Assembly (NCBI GenBank): GCA_041674405.1
Contig: JBAYVT010000002.1
Span: forward strand, 120,001-152,000
Origin: Patescibacteria group bacterium
GTDB taxonomy: Bacteria; Patescibacteriota; UBA1384; XYA2-FULL-43-10
Direction of reading: 5' to 3'
DNA length: 32,000 bases
A program made the translations under genes and the position numbers. Position 1 is the first letter of the stretch. Each line of letters begins with the position of its first letter. Below, piece after piece: positions 8,113-13,476 of this stretch. Under the pieces are notes generated by a model that did no database searches, was not told the origin of the DNA, and saw only the letters and a list, made by a program, of their open reading frames with translations.

Positions 8113-8198
8113 TGGTGCTCGGGAGAGGACTTGAACCTCCATGGATGTTACTCCGCTAGCTCCTAAGGCTAGTGCGTCTACCATTTCGCCACCCGAGC
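8113..8198 (-). tRNA. tRNA-Leu, anticodon UAG, class II long variable arm, CCA encoded
   Basis: The minus strand reads GCTCGGG TG GCG AAATGGTAGA CGC A CTAGC CTTAGGA GCTAG (variable arm CGGAGTAACATCCAT) GGAGG TTCAAGT CCTCT CCCGAGC ACCA. The acceptor pairs 7/7, and the T-loop (TTCAAGT) and D-loop (GG) conserved bases are present. Confidence 0.9.
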
Positions 8199-8927: not shown

Positions 8928-11054
8928 TTATTCTAAGTGTTTATGCGTTAAAAATTCATCAATTTTCTCCATAACTGCCGGATATTTTTCAATATTATTC
9001 GTAACGATCTTTGCCCCTTCCGCCGCTTCATCGATGAGCTCGATGTCGGAATACGATGCCATCCTGAGCTCATTATACCCCGACTGTATGGTTCCAAACA
9101 TATCACCAGCCCCGCGGTTCTTAAGATCTTGCTCTGCCAGCTTGAACCCATCAAGAATGTTTTCAAAAGATTTCAGTCGCTCTATCGCCCGCGGGTTCTG
9201 GGTACTTGAAAATACAAAGCAGAAGGACTGATGCTCGCCACGGCCAACTCTGCCACGGAATTGATGCAATTGTGCCAGCCCAAACCGCTCAGCATCTTCG
9301 ATCATCATGATCGTTGCATTCGGAATATCCACCCCTACCTCGACCACCGATGTAGATACCAATATATCAAGTTTACAAGCTTTAAATTCAGCCATTATTT
9401 CGTCTTTTGATTTTCCGCCTTTGGCGAGACCTCGCCTGCCCCGTCGGGGCGAGGCGGGCATTCGACCGTGGAGCATTCCAATCTTTAGATCAGGAAAGAT
9501 CTGTTTGCTCAATCGATTGTATTCCGCCATTACCGATTTTCTATCTTCGTCGAATAGTGTTTCTCTCGTTTGCGCTTCCGATTCTTCAATCAGCGGGCAA
9601 ATCACAAAGGCTTGGCGGCCAGATTGAATCTGCCGGCGAATGAAGTCATATGCTTTTAGCCTATTTGTCTCCTCAACAAATCTGGTTTTGATCGGTTTTC
9701 GGCCTTTCGGCATGGATTTGATAATCGACAAGTCAAGATCGCCGAAGAGCGCGAGATGCAATGATCTTGGAATTGGCGTCGCTGTCATCGATAGAAAGTG
9801 CGGCCTTAACCCTTCTCTGCTCTTCGTGAGTTCCGCCCGTTGATTTACACCGAATCTATGTTGTTCGTCCACGATCACGAGCCCCAAGTTCTTGATTTCA
9901 ACTTTGCCCTGAACCAAAGAATGCGTCCCCACTATCACCTGCCTCTCGAGCTCGCCCGCAACATTTGCCTTTCTCGTAGAGGAAGTCAAAAGCCCGACTG
10001 AAACATCTGATTTTTCTAAAAGCTTATTAAGTGTTTCAAAATGCTGTTTGGCAAGGATCTCTGTCGGCGCCATAAGTGCCGTTCGGAAGCCGGCTTTCGC
10101 AGCAATGTAGGCAGCGAATGCAGCAACCGCAGTTTTTCCGCTCCCGACATCCCCGTTAAGTAGCCTATTCATTGGTTTTTTTAATGCTAGATCTTTAGCG
10201 ATTTGCCAAACAGCCTTTTTCTGATCGGTGGTAAGCTCGAATGGCAGAGCATCTGCAAATTTCTTAAGTTCGGGATCTGCGGTCTCAATTTTTGGGGCTG
10301 ATTCTGTTGCGATCTCTTCCTTGATTAATTGCGAACGGATGGCAATCAGAAATAATTCGTCGAATGCTATTCTCCGCCTCGCTTTCGATAAGGCTTGCGA
10401 ATCCTCCGGCTCGTGGATATTTTTCAGAGCCGACCGGATTCCTAAGAGATCATATTTATCTAAAATGGGTTGTGGTAAATATTCCTCAAGTTTTGAGATT
10501 TGTCCGCCAGCCGGCGGATTAATATTTGAGATCAATCGAGCTATGAAGTAGCTCGACACACCCGCCGTCTCAGGATAAACTGGAACAATTTTTGGCCGGT
10601 TCGCTCGGTTTGGCGACTCCATCACAAGCGAATGAGAAAAAGAATCGTAGGAAACTTTGCCGTTTAATATAACTTCGGATCCAGCTTTCAGCATTTTTGC
10701 CAAGTATGGTTGATTAAACCAAACAACTTTGAGCGATCCGGAGTTGTCTTCAACTACTGCTTCTGTCACGGTAAACCCCCTGCGTCTCGTTCTTTTATTG
10801 GCAATGCCCACTACTCGAGCTCGGATCGTGAAGTTATTAGTTTTTAGTTCTAAGTTATTAGTTAAGTTACTAATTTTAGTGACTTGGGTATAGTCTTTAT
10901 ATCTTCGTGGATAATGATAAATCAAATCTTGGGCTGTATAAATTCCCAGCTTATTGAGCTTCGGTGCAACCTTTGGCCCGACACCCTTCAAATATTTAAT
11001 TTCGGTATTTAAATTTATTTCCATTTCACCAACATTATACTTTATACTTTTCAC
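8928..11054 (-). CDS. recG: ATP-dependent DNA helicase RecG
   Basis: Walker A GDVGSGKT, motif II VIVDEQHRFGV, MTATPIPRS, QLHQFRGRVGRG, and an N-terminal wedge region with LKGVGPKVAPKLNKLGI. The track start is GTG at 11054 (no SD); ATG (MEINLN) 10 codons downstream is an alternative. Confidence 0.93.
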   Translation of the reverse strand: MKSIKYNVGEMEINLNTEIKYLKGVGPKVAPKLNKLGIYTAQDLIYHYPRRYKDYTQVTKISNLTNNLELKTNNFTIRARVVGIANKRTRRRGFTVTEAVVEDNSGSLKVVWFNQPYLAKMLKAGSEVILNGKVSYDSFSHSLVMESPNRANRPKIVPVYPETAGVSSYFIARLISNINPPAGGQISKLEEYLPQPILDKYDLLGIRSALKNIHEPEDSQALSKARRRIAFDELFLIAIRSQLIKEEIATESAPKIETADPELKKFADALPFELTTDQKKAVWQIAKDLALKKPMNRLLNGDVGSGKTAVAAFAAYIAAKAGFRTALMAPTEILAKQHFETLNKLLEKSDVSVGLLTSSTRKANVAGELERQVIVGTHSLVQGKVEIKNLGLVIVDEQHRFGVNQRAELTKSREGLRPHFLSMTATPIPRSLHLALFGDLDLSIIKSMPKGRKPIKTRFVEETNRLKAYDFIRRQIQSGRQAFVICPLIEESEAQTRETLFDEDRKSVMAEYNRLSKQIFPDLKIGMLHGRMPASPRRGRRGLAKGGKSKDEIMAEFKACKLDILVSTSVVEVGVDIPNATIMMIEDAERFGLAQLHQFRGRVGRGEHQSFCFVFSSTQNPRAIERLKSFENILDGFKLAEQDLKNRGAGDMFGTIQSGYNELRMASYSDIELIDEAAEGAKIVTNNIEKYPAVMEKIDEFLTHKHLE

Positions 11055-11072
11055 TTTGCACTATCACAGGTA

Positions 11073-11101
11073 TTGACATTTATTGACCAGCGTGATATAA
11101 G
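11073..11101 (+). promoter_or_regulatory. Sigma70-like promoter, unit A of the GC-rich island
   Basis: TTGACA (11073-11078), a 17-nt spacer ending in TGa, then TATAAG (11096-11101). Confidence 0.5.
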
Positions 11102-11159
11102 TGATCTTGTCGTACCGCGAAGCTTAGGCTCGCGGATCTTCGTCAGGGAGGTAGTGCCA

Positions 11160-11285
11160 ATGCTCGATCGTCTCGGTCACCGTCTCGCGAAGTCGCCGAT
11201 ATCGTACCCGGTTCTCGGGAAGACCATCGCCGCGATGTCGCGAGTGACCCGCTGGGTCCAGCGGGTGCACGAGATGCCTGGCTAG
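11160..11285 (+). CDS. Hypothetical 41-aa basic peptide (MLDRLGHRLAKSPISYPVLGKTIAAMSRVTRWVQRVHEMPG)
   Basis: GGGAGG lies 8 nt upstream of the ATG, and third codon positions are G/C-biased. The region is also strongly hairpin-forming, so coding status is uncertain. Confidence 0.3.
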   Translation: MLDRLGHRLAKSPISYPVLGKTIAAMSRVTRWVQRVHEMPG

Positions 11286-11604
11286 CGGTTCCACCCTGCG
11301 GACGTCCGGATAGGTGGCTGTTGAACTGGCCGTAAGATCCGGACAGCGGAAGGTGGGAGCCGGCGGTTGCGTCGTAGGTCGCAAGGACCAACGCGCCGCC
11401 GGCTCCCGCCGGCAAGCCTCATCCATCCTTTCTTCTCGGAGGTGCTATCATTATCCTCCCCACTTCCGAGATTGGTGGAGAAGGAGTTCCCTGGCGGACG
11501 CTCCCTCTCCACCACCGCCCCCCAAGACAGGGCACATCGTCGGTTCCCAAACCGGTGCTCTGTCTGAGTGTAATGCGCCGACCTCCTCGAGGCCGGCGCT
11601 TTTG
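11286..11604 (+). ncRNA. Candidate structured RNA / highly structured 3' region of unit A
   Basis: It holds successive strong hairpins. 11304-11311/11337-11344 is 8 bp perfect. 11355-11366/11396-11407 is 12 bp perfect, extendable to 15. 11474-11486/11501-11513 is 8+4 bp with 1 mismatch. 11525-11535/11555-11565 is 11 bp with one G-T, plus an inner CGGTT/AACCG. A terminator follows. No known RNA family motif recognised. Confidence 0.3.
11575..11603 (+). terminator. Intrinsic terminator of unit A
   Basis: GCGCCG-a-CCTC-ctc-GAGG-c-CGGCGC followed by TTTT. Confidence 0.55.
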
Positions 11605-11665
11605 CGTCTAATGAGGGTATTCTAACTTCTGTGATCTTCAGTGAAACAATTCTGTGATCGTATAT

Positions 11666-11694
11666 TTGACTTAATGCAGAGCTTCGTATATATT
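11666..11694 (+). promoter_or_regulatory. Sigma70-like promoter, unit B
   Basis: TTGACT (11666-11671), a 17-nt spacer, then TATATT (11689-11694). Confidence 0.5.
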
Positions 11695-11737
11695 ATTTCC
11701 GTCGCACTCATCAACTGCCCACGGGAGGGACAACCAC

Positions 11738-12064
11738 TTGCTCACCATGCTGTTTCTGATGTTGACGTTGATGGCGATCTTGCCACGGCCAGCCCTCCTG
11801 TTGGGGCTGATCAGCTTTTTCGGTCGGCGGAGCTCGCCCCCCTGCGATCCCGCTCCGGTCCTGGAGAGACCGGTCTCTGGCGCCGAGCCATCGGGCCAGG
11901 GAAAGTATCAGATGAATGTGTGGGGGTCTGAAGGACCCACCGTTGCCCCGGCCTTGCAAGCCCAAGTTTTTTCACGAGTGTCTTCAGGACACTCCTATCG
12001 CCTTACAAGCGACTTACTGACAGAGCGGCCCCTGGTATGGGTCGCTCTCGCTCTTTTTATTTAA
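11738..12064 (+). CDS. Hypothetical 108-aa protein with hydrophobic N- and C-termini
   Basis: TTG start lies 7 nt after GGGAGGGA (an in-frame ATG is at 11747). Third positions show strong G/C bias over the first two thirds. The N-terminus is LFLMLTLMAILPRPALLLGLISFF and the C-terminus is PLVWVALALFI. The terminator overlaps the 3' end. Confidence 0.35.
   Translation: MLTMLFLMLTLMAILPRPALLLGLISFFGRRSSPPCDPAPVLERPVSGAEPSGQGKYQMNVWGSEGPTVAPALQAQVFSRVSSGHSYRLTSDLLTERPLVWVALALFI
12023..12058 (+). terminator. Intrinsic terminator of unit B
   Basis: GAGCGGCCC-ctggtat-GGGTCGCTC forms 9 pairs with one G-T, followed by tcgctcTTTTTaTTT. Confidence 0.5.
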
Positions 12065-12078
12065 GCTTATCAATATTA

Positions 12079-12087
12079 TGATATAAT
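12079..12087 (+). promoter_or_regulatory. Extended -10 promoter element, unit C
   Basis: TGaTATAAT at 12079-12087. The -35 is poor. Confidence 0.4.
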
Positions 12088-12143
12088 GCTCTTGCAGAAC
12101 GCCAACAGATTTTCCACGTCGGATAACGAAGGAGGGTTGTGCT

Positions 12144-12206
12144 ATGAGGGTTCTGTTCTCTGCCTTGGCATTGCTGGTGCTGGTGGCGCTGGTGGTCGTG
12201 GCCTAG
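12144..12206 (+). CDS. Hypothetical 20-aa hydrophobic peptide (MRVLFSALALLVLVALVVVA)
   Basis: GGAGGG lies 7 nt upstream of the ATG. The peptide is a single TM-length hydrophobic stretch. It is followed by hairpins 12206-12223 and 12256-12272 and then a terminator. Confidence 0.35.
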   Translation: MRVLFSALALLVLVALVVVA

Positions 12207-12284
12207 GTCCTAGCAAGAGGACCGCGGTGGCTGGATCAACAGCAAGAATCGGATCATCCGCCCTGGGCGGATGGCGAGATTAAA

Positions 12285-12312
12285 ACGACGGCTGTCCCTA
12301 GCCGTCGTTTCT
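12285..12312. terminator. Hairpin terminator, plausibly bidirectional (unit C on plus, mnmA on minus)
   Basis: ACGACGGCT-gtccct-AGCCGTCGT is a perfect 9-bp stem, flanked by AAAA on the 5' side and TTT on the 3' side. Confidence 0.55.
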
Positions 12313-12366
12313 CGTCGTATGAGATAGTTGCCCAATAGTTTTTAGTTTTAACATTTGAGTTTTGAG

Positions 12367-13476
12367 TTATTTAATGTATCCCCCTCCCAAAACTTCATCA
12401 CCCAAGTAGAACACTGCGGATTGACCGGGAGTAATCGCTCTTTGCGGCTCATCAAATTCAACTACAATGTTTTTGATCTTTGATATTTGACCTTTGATCT
12501 CGCATGGCACCGCTGCATGCCGATATCTTATTTTGACCTTAAGGCTCATAAGTTCTTCAGCCCTTAAGTTTTGAGGTTCGATCAACCAATTCAAATCTGT
12601 CACCGTCATCTCTTTGCTATATATATCCTCATCGTCACCCACGATCAGTTGGTTTTTCGAAACATTAAATCCAACCACATAAAGTGGTTTTTTTTGAGTT
12701 TTTAGCTGACAGCTTGCAGATTGCAGTTGATCTATTCCTTTGCGTTGTCCGATTGTATAATTGACCAATCCTTCGTGAGTCCCGAGTACATTCCCCTCTT
12801 TATCGGCAATTTCGCCGGGTTTAAAATATTTCTGATCCAAATATCTTTTCAAAAAAAAGCGATAATCACGATCACCAAAAAAGCAAATTTCCTGGCTTTC
12901 CGGCTTTTCCTTGACCGGCAGATCCCACTTTTTTGCCAGTTCCCGCACATCTTTCTTCTTCATTTCTCCGAGCGGAAACAGAGTTTTTGATAGCTGATTC
13001 TGATTCAATCGATAGAGCATGTAGCTTTGATCCTTGGTGCCGTCGATACCAGCTAAAAGCTGATAACTGGCTACTGGCAGCTTCTGGATTCGCGCATAAT
13101 GTCCTGTCGCAAGATAATCACAGCCGATAGAAAGCGCTTTTTTAAGTAGAAGATCAAATTTGATTTTTTCATTACAGACAATGCACGGGTTTGGGGTTTT
13201 TAATTTTTTGTATTCATCGATGAAATAGTCAACAACATCTTTTTTGAATTCATCCACAGCGTTTATAACATAGAACGGGATACCAAGGCCGTGCGCCACC
13301 TTTCGCGCGTCTTCGAGCGCCTCATAGTTGCAACATCGATTTTCCTTTACCACATTACACATAGGGTCAGACCATAATTTCAAAAAAAGCCCGACTAATT
13401 CGTGGCCCTCATCTTTTAACATTTTTGCCACGACGGAAGAATCAACTCCACCGGACATTGCGACCGCAATTTTCAT
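12367..13476 (-). CDS. mnmA: tRNA-specific 2-thiouridylase
   Basis: The N-terminal PP-loop is VAMSGGVDSSV. Also CNEKIKF, ATGHYAR and a C-terminal GQSAVFY..GGG. The length is typical at 369 aa. Confidence 0.93.
   Translation of the reverse strand: MKIAVAMSGGVDSSVVAKMLKDEGHELVGLFLKLWSDPMCNVVKENRCCNYEALEDARKVAHGLGIPFYVINAVDEFKKDVVDYFIDEYKKLKTPNPCIVCNEKIKFDLLLKKALSIGCDYLATGHYARIQKLPVASYQLLAGIDGTKDQSYMLYRLNQNQLSKTLFPLGEMKKKDVRELAKKWDLPVKEKPESQEICFFGDRDYRFFLKRYLDQKYFKPGEIADKEGNVLGTHEGLVNYTIGQRKGIDQLQSASCQLKTQKKPLYVVGFNVSKNQLIVGDDEDIYSKEMTVTDLNWLIEPQNLRAEELMSLKVKIRYRHAAVPCEIKGQISKIKNIVVEFDEPQRAITPGQSAVFYLGDEVLGGGYIK

Follow-up and report, generated by a model that had tools for sequence, protein, structure and literature searches.

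Stable GC-rich stem-loops past the coding region are familiar from the enterobacteria, where PNPase and other 3' exonucleases can be stalled by 3' stabiliser hairpins of mRNAs and by REP/BIME elements. The hairpin array described here resembles these elements in being GC-rich and placed 3' of an ORF, in a genome which encodes PNPase. Whereas REP elements form multi-copy families, however, the array is single-copy and consists of five unrelated stems.

The transcription unit which would carry this array, unit A, invites comparison with phage morons (concept of Juhala and Hendrix; definition in PMC3594210). Like a moron, unit A has a promoter and a terminator of its own, both called at sequence level, differs from its neighbours in GC content, and lies between genes whose order is conserved in relatives lacking it. 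Unlike a moron, it is chromosomal, the island in which it resides has no match in phage or plasmid collections, and its payload is not a normal gene but an orphan ORF of 41 aa with a hairpin array of 320 nt behind it.

Two further groups of systems are close enough to merit discussion. Firstly, a pipeline for non-coding RNAs in GC-rich intergenic regions (GC-IGRs) assigns comparable regions to the label "Unnamed: insufficient evidence to classify" (PMC6429828). The present locus is, like these, long, intergenic and GC-rich within an AT-richer genome, with predicted structure and no homologues; it departs from them in its clear context of promoter, small ORF and terminator, and in having a non-homologous analogue in the same genomic slot which does covary. 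Secondly, the segment has the high GC content, the strong folding, the lack of coding capacity and the length of several hundred nucleotides seen in OLE, GOLLD, ROOL, HEARO and raiA, large structured bacterial RNAs of unknown function, but it lacks the Rfam match, multi-stem junctions, conserved loops and family which accompany those RNAs.

The segment in question, positions 11286-11604 of the window (the whole 32,000-nt stretch of DNA analysed), is real, statistically exceptional and non-coding. It is most likely an orphan, the structured 3' UTR of a cassette which is rich in GC and carries a small ORF. For unit A as a whole, the best reading of the sequence would be a self-contained, lineage-specific GC-rich minigene cassette, moron-like but chromosomal. 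A new RNA class or family cannot be established by a single orphan locus.

The gap between recG and mnmA

The window belongs to a genome of 0.93 Mb (929 kb, seven contigs, 98.7% complete) with a GC content of 42%. A 1312-nt gap (11055-12366) with a GC content of 55-69% separates recG from mnmA, and the GC-rich island within it, which also has folD and one tRNA among its neighbours, is set apart by a GC content of 56-69%. The gap holds three units (A, B and C) on the plus strand, opposite to recG and mnmA. Each has its sigma-70-type promoter within an AT-rich spacer and carries, besides a terminator, a small ORF with a strong Shine-Dalgarno site. Since the island is identical in three independent assemblies, save for N-masking and contig-end errors, it is no assembly artefact. 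The features are as follows.

8928-11054, minus strand: recG (Pfam identification)
11073-11101, plus strand: putative unit A promoter, -35 TTGACA at 11073-11078, 17-nt spacer, -10 TATAAG at 11096-11101 (read from the sequence)
11115-11135, plus strand: 5' leader hairpin CCGCGA/TCGCGG (sequence; full-transcript fold)
11146-11151, plus strand: Shine-Dalgarno site GGGAGG, 8 nt ahead of the ATG (sequence)
11160-11285, plus strand: 41-aa ORF, MLDRLGHRLAKSPISYPVLGKTIAAMSRVTRWVQRVHEMPG (GC3 periodicity, codon log-likelihood)
11286-11362, plus strand: hairpin H1, core GTCCGGAT at 11304-11311 with ATCCGGAC at 11337-11344; extended arms 11286-11311 with 11337-11362, 26 nt each, 73% complementarity
11352-11410, plus strand: hairpin H2, arms 11352-11366 with 11396-11410 (15 nt, 93%); perfect 12-bp core, with a small stem-loop nested inside
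11434-11471, plus strand: hairpin H3, arms 11434-11444 with 11461-11471 (11 nt, 91%), including GGAGG/CCTCC
11473-11514, plus strand: hairpin H4, arms 11473-11486 with 11501-11514 (14 nt, 93%), one A/C mismatch
11525-11565, plus strand: hairpin H5, outer stem of 11 bp, one of them G-U; inner CGGUU/AACCG stem
11575-11604, plus strand: putative unit A intrinsic terminator, GC hairpin 11575-11599 followed by TTTTG
11627-11661, plus strand: two TTCTGTGATC boxes, 23 nt apart, directly upstream of the unit B -35
11666-12058, plus strand: unit B, promoter 11666-11694, Shine-Dalgarno site GGGAGGG, ORF 11738-12064, terminator 12022-12048
12082-12310, plus strand: unit C, -10 TATAAT at 12082-12087, Shine-Dalgarno site AAGGAGG, 20-aa ORF 12144-12206
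12367-13476, minus strand: mnmA (Pfam identification)

Unit A thus runs from promoter through leader hairpin, Shine-Dalgarno site, 41-aa ORF and H1-H5 to the terminator, and the segment at 11286-11604 would make up the 3' two thirds of the predicted transcript. The first-pass annotation of this DNA had placed the segment on the unit A transcript, ahead of a terminator, and sequence-level calls of a promoter at 11073-11101 and a terminator at 11575-11604 agree with this. Every stem it had listed was recovered from the sequence, as were its two 5' hairpins (11115-11135 and approximately 11244-11270). The promoter is divergent from recG and was missed by an automated promoter scan because its -10 ends in G. 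Hairpins H1-H5, none of which is followed by a U-tract, are independent, near-perfect local stems arranged in series, with no multi-junction fold or pseudoknot. When the whole transcript is folded, the sole long-range helix pairs the Shine-Dalgarno site with 11291-11298, just past the stop codon.

The recG ATG at 11024, which is the start chosen by gene callers and gives a 698-aa product, has a perfect TATAAT 9 nt ahead of it on the minus strand (window 11024-11054). The recG mRNA, divergent from unit A, may therefore be leaderless or nearly so.

The gene order mnmA-recG is kept across the order, with gaps as short as -28 nt, where the genes overlap, and as long as 3.4 kb. Many of the relatives' gaps carry blocks of 60-72% GC which bear no relation to the window's island, and most promoter- and terminator-like sites in these gaps are opposite in strand to mnmA and recG. 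Ordinary small genes account for some blocks, for example one for a conserved protein of approximately 150-190 aa (G010, L055, L052 and L082). The slot turns over fast, its contents being unrelated in every lineage examined.

Coding potential

ORFs are present in every frame of the segment, and coding readings of 11286-11604 were considered and rejected on two measures. Phase-specific GC is flat within it, and codon log-likelihood, trained on 30 GC-rich genes of the window's genome, is negative in all six frames. The first-pass annotation had held the segment to be non-coding, which is borne out by the lack of any frame with coding-type codon usage or GC3 periodicity.

The 41-aa ORF directly upstream does display GC3 periodicity, with a codon log-likelihood of +0.116 per codon (+0.21 for the genome's GC-rich genes), and is probably translated. 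Its product would be basic and amphipathic, without a transmembrane stretch, and searches of 5.8 billion clustered proteins and of 1.84 billion protein representatives turned up no homologue.

A small ORF behind a strong Shine-Dalgarno site on a highly folded mRNA brings to mind a type I toxin-antitoxin-like arrangement, in which the fold would keep a small toxic peptide untranslated until the mRNA is processed. The predicted pairing of the Shine-Dalgarno site with 11291-11298 would suit such a scheme, as would the hydrophobic peptides encoded by the neighbouring units B and C. For unit A we nevertheless find it hardly credible. The 41-aa peptide, basic and amphipathic, has no membrane helix, and neither an antisense partner nor extended complementarity was found in the island or the genome, where matches did not exceed the 10-15 nt expected by chance. 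The Shine-Dalgarno site, moreover, is paired equally with the native tail and with 100 shuffled tails (0.86 against 0.83). Since shuffled tails pair the site equally, the pairing appears to be compositional, and we do not take sequestration of the site as evidence for a switch.

Folding, hairpin density and GC-rich islands

The minimum free energy of the 319-nt segment is -162.3 kcal/mol, compared to -124.0 ± 5.7 kcal/mol for dinucleotide shuffles, which corresponds to a z-score of -6.7 on the plus strand and -5.9 on the minus strand. The comparison with shuffled controls, proposed in the first-pass annotation, thereby came out in favour of its view. Counting stems of at least 10 Watson-Crick pairs, in which a single mismatch and loops of up to 45 nt were allowed, gave five in the segment, while 1000 shuffles averaged 0.13 with a maximum of two; none reached five.

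For a comparison within the genome, GC-rich islands were defined as stretches with a minimum length of 450 nt and a minimum GC content of 60%, of which there are 35. The hairpin density of the segment (15.7 per kb) is 14-fold that of the 34 other islands (1.14 per kb over 32 kb; Poisson P = 4e-5), where the highest individual density is at most 4.6 per kb. The z-score is less exclusive. GC-rich 300-nt windows of the genome (at least 56% GC, mostly coding) have a mean z of -1.39 (sd 1.65), with two of 123 at -6 or lower, and are over-folded relative to native AT-rich windows, whose mean is -0.38 and minimum -3.6 (Mann-Whitney P = 1e-6).

The islands also bear on the notion, invoked in the first-pass annotation, that GC-rich intergenic sequence in an AT-rich genome signals functional RNA. 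This is a weak rule here, as all 34 of the other islands contain an ORF with coding-type GC3 bias, filling 80-100% of the island in most cases. Because its peers hold such ORFs, the island under study is exceptional; it is the least ORF-covered of the 35, at 21%. Judged by translation, products of the GC-rich genes resemble purine-synthesis enzymes, an aminotransferase, a nicotinamide phosphoribosyltransferase and many lipoproteins.

The strand on which the stems act is not revealed by their base pairs. G-U pairs number 7 and 8 on the two strands, favouring neither, and a strand call based on them was dropped as uninformative. As these counts are neutral, the assignment of unit A to the plus strand rests on its promoter, Shine-Dalgarno site and terminator.

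These observations raise the prospect that the segment has no function of its own, being the by-product of a process which generates and preserves GC-rich self-complementary cassettes in genomes of this kind, or else a decayed cassette, whether a former coding region or a stack of ex-terminators. GC-rich DNA in this genome is, after all, over-folded in general, coding or not. Perfect Watson-Crick stems without strand bias would fit an origin at the DNA level equally well, the recG-mnmA slot exchanges its contents quickly, and a sole ORF-poor island among 35 is what decay predicts. We consider this somewhat unlikely. No frame retains a coding signal, the hairpins lack the U-tracts which ex-terminators should have, and the promoter, Shine-Dalgarno site and terminator of unit A are intact. 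Long near-perfect stems should also erode when unselected, and a general tendency to over-folding must be set against the 14-fold excess of hairpins over the other islands.

Searches for relatives

Compared to the covariance models of Rfam 15, the island gave no gathering-level match and none that was credible at E-values up to 10, so that the Rfam search which the first-pass annotation had recommended yielded no family. The best sub-threshold match in the island was ar14 (24.8 bits, against a gathering score of 58.8), and the sole gathering-level match in the window was a tRNA at 8116-8198. A retron-type RNA was excluded separately, there being no match to RVT_1 (PF00078) in this 98.7%-complete genome.

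No match to the island was found in 40 relatives or in 162 genomes of the class (blastn, tblastx and nhmmer), nor in any of the recG-mnmA gaps fetched, which included those of genomes and of 80 metagenome loci reached through recG. For both mnmA and recG, the cluster at 90% identity has a single member. A search for the exact stem pattern in genome and viral contigs returned only chance palindromes in high-GC actinomycetes. The tail thus has no homologue in the collections searched, and the identical assemblies which carry it offer no variation to compare. The proposal of a novel structured RNA, with which the first-pass annotation began, accordingly stands in part: the segment is non-coding and richer in hairpins than shuffled or composition-matched DNA, but the searches found no homologue with which it could form a class.

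Within the 929-kb genome, the island is single-copy by blastn and tblastx. Membership in a REP/BIME or MITE family was rejected, as the palindromes have no further genomic copies. The first-pass annotation had named three findings which would speak against a structured RNA, namely conservation of a reading frame among homologues, folding no better than that of dinucleotide shuffles, and derivation of the stems from a dispersed palindromic repeat; none of these was made.

The palindromes may alternatively serve at the level of DNA, as cruciform or hairpin sites for the insertion or exchange of cassettes, much as integrons use attC sites and IS200/IS605 elements their ends. Such a role would account for cassettes which come and go at exactly the recG-mnmA gap with no insertion enzyme in sight, and would agree with perfect Watson-Crick stems which are equally stable on both strands; inverted CTGTGAT motifs, furthermore, bracket unit A (11060-11069, a partial box copy, and 11652-11661). 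We regard it as very improbable. An attC site was taken to be an imperfect palindrome, 57-141 nt in length, between the core sites R'' (RYYYAAC) and R' (GTTRRRY), and no such core pair occurs on either strand of 11055-12366. The sequence is single-copy, the hairpins lie inside one unit rather than at unit borders and were not found bordering other cassettes, and the CTGTGA boxes belong to a genome-wide motif which also occurs beside ordinary genes.

Analogous tails in other cassettes

A usable comparison is offered by the recG-mnmA gap of L048, which has a three-unit layout like that of the window and in which a small ORF is followed by a tail of approximately 290 nt with long hairpins. Its unit A' consists of a promoter, a Shine-Dalgarno site, a small ORF, a GC-rich multi-hairpin tail and a terminator, and shares both strand and order of parts with unit A. 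Units B' and C' are predicted to be hairpin RNAs running from promoter to terminator without a convincing ORF. The two cassettes show no similarity by sequence or covariance model, and the 83-aa ORF of L048 is unrelated to the 41-aa ORF of the window.

The L048 ORF has two homologues (63% and 59% identity) on contigs L146 and L147, where it is likewise accompanied by a tail. The conserved ORF of 82-93 aa and its tail, opposite in strand to the two flanking genes, are found at:

L048, 1380-1916, minus strand
L146, 413-1026
L147, 541-1082

In these three sequences the 3' half of the tail can be aligned and five helices are kept. Over 40 pairs, 88% of cells are paired and both sides have changed in 10, a number equalled by none of 500 shuffles, while slid controls gave 0-3. 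The tail features invariant G-U pairs and an unpaired conserved motif, GGCCGCAAUCAUCC, between covarying helices. With three sequences this covariation is suggestive, not conclusive. As its changes are compensatory, tails of such cassettes can be selected RNA structures. A covariance model of the L048-family tail found no match to the window's tail, and the two appear to be analogous, not demonstrably homologous. Weak matches of the same model in G009 and G006 proved to be generic hairpin-plus-terminator hits on both strands, and these were rejected as members. The L048-family tail constitutes a small candidate RNA motif in its own right.

The window's genome has a further cassette of this layout at C4:21950-22720 (minus strand), where a Shine-Dalgarno site precedes an orphan ORF of 114 aa, followed by approximately 210 nt of GC-rich tail with multiple hairpins; it has no homologue in 44 genomes of the order. 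Hairpin densities in the tails of L048 unit A' and the C4 cassette are 7-10 per kb, and both resemble unit A in layout without homology.

Some features of the L048 cassettes lend weight to the idea that the window's segment functions by itself as a non-coding RNA. It might be a stand-alone RNA or one derived from the 3' UTR, and might act in trans, as a scaffold or decoy for a protein or RNase III, with the 41-aa ORF incidental or providing a second function. The L048 units B' and C' occupy the same slot as hairpin RNAs without a convincing ORF, and the unpaired motif kept between covarying helices of the L048-family tail would be in keeping with such an RNA. In the window itself, the hairpin density is extreme for the genome, two thirds of the predicted transcript are untranslated, and the genome encodes RNase III, a cutter of long duplexes. 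We judge a non-coding RNA of this sort to be unlikely here, given that the segment has no Rfam match or homologue, comprises serial near-perfect stems with no multi-helix junction or pseudoknot, lacks extended complementarity elsewhere in the genome, and has no evident internal promoter.

Possible role of the hairpin array

Of the readings considered, we lean, tentatively and at somewhat less than an even chance, towards a cis-acting 3' UTR hairpin array which would end transcription and protect a short mRNA. Transcription would begin at the promoter at 11073-11101, producing an RNA with the leader hairpin, the Shine-Dalgarno site, the 41-aa ORF, approximately 320 nt with five stem-loops, and the intrinsic terminator. 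The array would then halt the polymerase before unit B, providing insulation, and block 3'-to-5' decay of this very short mRNA. That unit A is transcribed, that its ORF is translated and that the array stabilises and insulates are inferences from the sequence. Several observations speak for them: promoter, Shine-Dalgarno site, ORF and terminator share the plus strand; the ORF has a coding signature which the segment lacks; the hairpins, well in excess of chance, are local and serial and lead up to a terminator; the layout recurs without homology in L048 unit A' and the C4 cassette; and the L048-family tail has compensatory changes.

The genome's complement of RNA-processing factors bears on this 3' UTR reading. 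No match to the Rho RNA-binding domain or to the RNB domain (RNase II/R) was found in the genome, which does encode PNPase (C3:128100-129425) and RNase III (C1:39433-39828). As no Rho was found, a long untranslated tail would escape Rho-dependent termination. Of the 3' exonucleases looked for, PNPase alone was found, and against it stable stems should give a short mRNA strong protection.

Several observations count against the 3' UTR reading. Firstly, G-U pairs are neutral and the minimum free energy is the same on both strands. Secondly, H1-H5 lack U-tracts and would not be classical terminators. Thirdly, five hairpins exceed what protection of a 3' end requires, and most other GC-rich cassettes of this genome manage with a single terminator hairpin. 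Finally, the searches found no homologue of the window's tail which could speak for selection on its stems.

A bolder proposal is that hairpin-array tails represent a new, lineage-wide RNA module of the Patescibacteria, whose cassettes would be kept GC-rich by selection for hyper-folded transcripts, with the array as a functional domain. That this is so seems decidedly unlikely at present. Under it, the array would be more than a terminator, for example a stability switch gated by RNase III or PNPase, or a double-stranded RNA decoy or scaffold.

If the array is functional, the locus would show how ultra-small symbiotic bacteria express short accessory genes, with oversized RNA "tails" on such genes where no Rho or RNase II/R was matched. 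It would also bear on why Patescibacteria keep GC-rich over-folded minigenes in AT-rich genomes, of which we found no description in the literature searched. The locus adds one well-documented example and, in the L048 family, a usable comparative case.

Units B and C and recurrent motifs

The unit B ORF encodes 108 aa with a hydrophobic N-terminus, shows coding-type codon usage in its first 60 or so codons only, and matched itself alone in the protein search. The terminator of unit C (12283-12310) is bidirectional and common to mnmA. Its 20-aa peptide, MRVLFSALALLVLVALVVVA, encoded behind AAGGAGG, is all-hydrophobic and without homologue, and would resemble a type I toxin or a lone signal peptide.

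Two motifs recur beyond this locus. The hexamer TCGTAC is rare, with 161 copies over both strands of the window's genome, and is found 7-10 nt past the -10 box in three otherwise unrelated mnmA-recG gap cassettes (window 11110-11115, L048 unit A' and G005/L066 unit 2), where it may form a transcription-start context common to the cassettes. The boxes upstream of unit B belong to a motif, TTCTGTG(A/G), which forms tandem clusters of 2-6 at a spacing of approximately 10-25 nt in at least eight places of the genome, including C1:187359, C3:129741, C3:129806, C4:30299, C5:129771, C6:34680 and C6:37602. Clusters, but not single boxes, are over-represented, and are candidates for a DnaA-box-like motif or for the operator of a transcription factor. 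The copy in C5 is close to TGTGGATAA.
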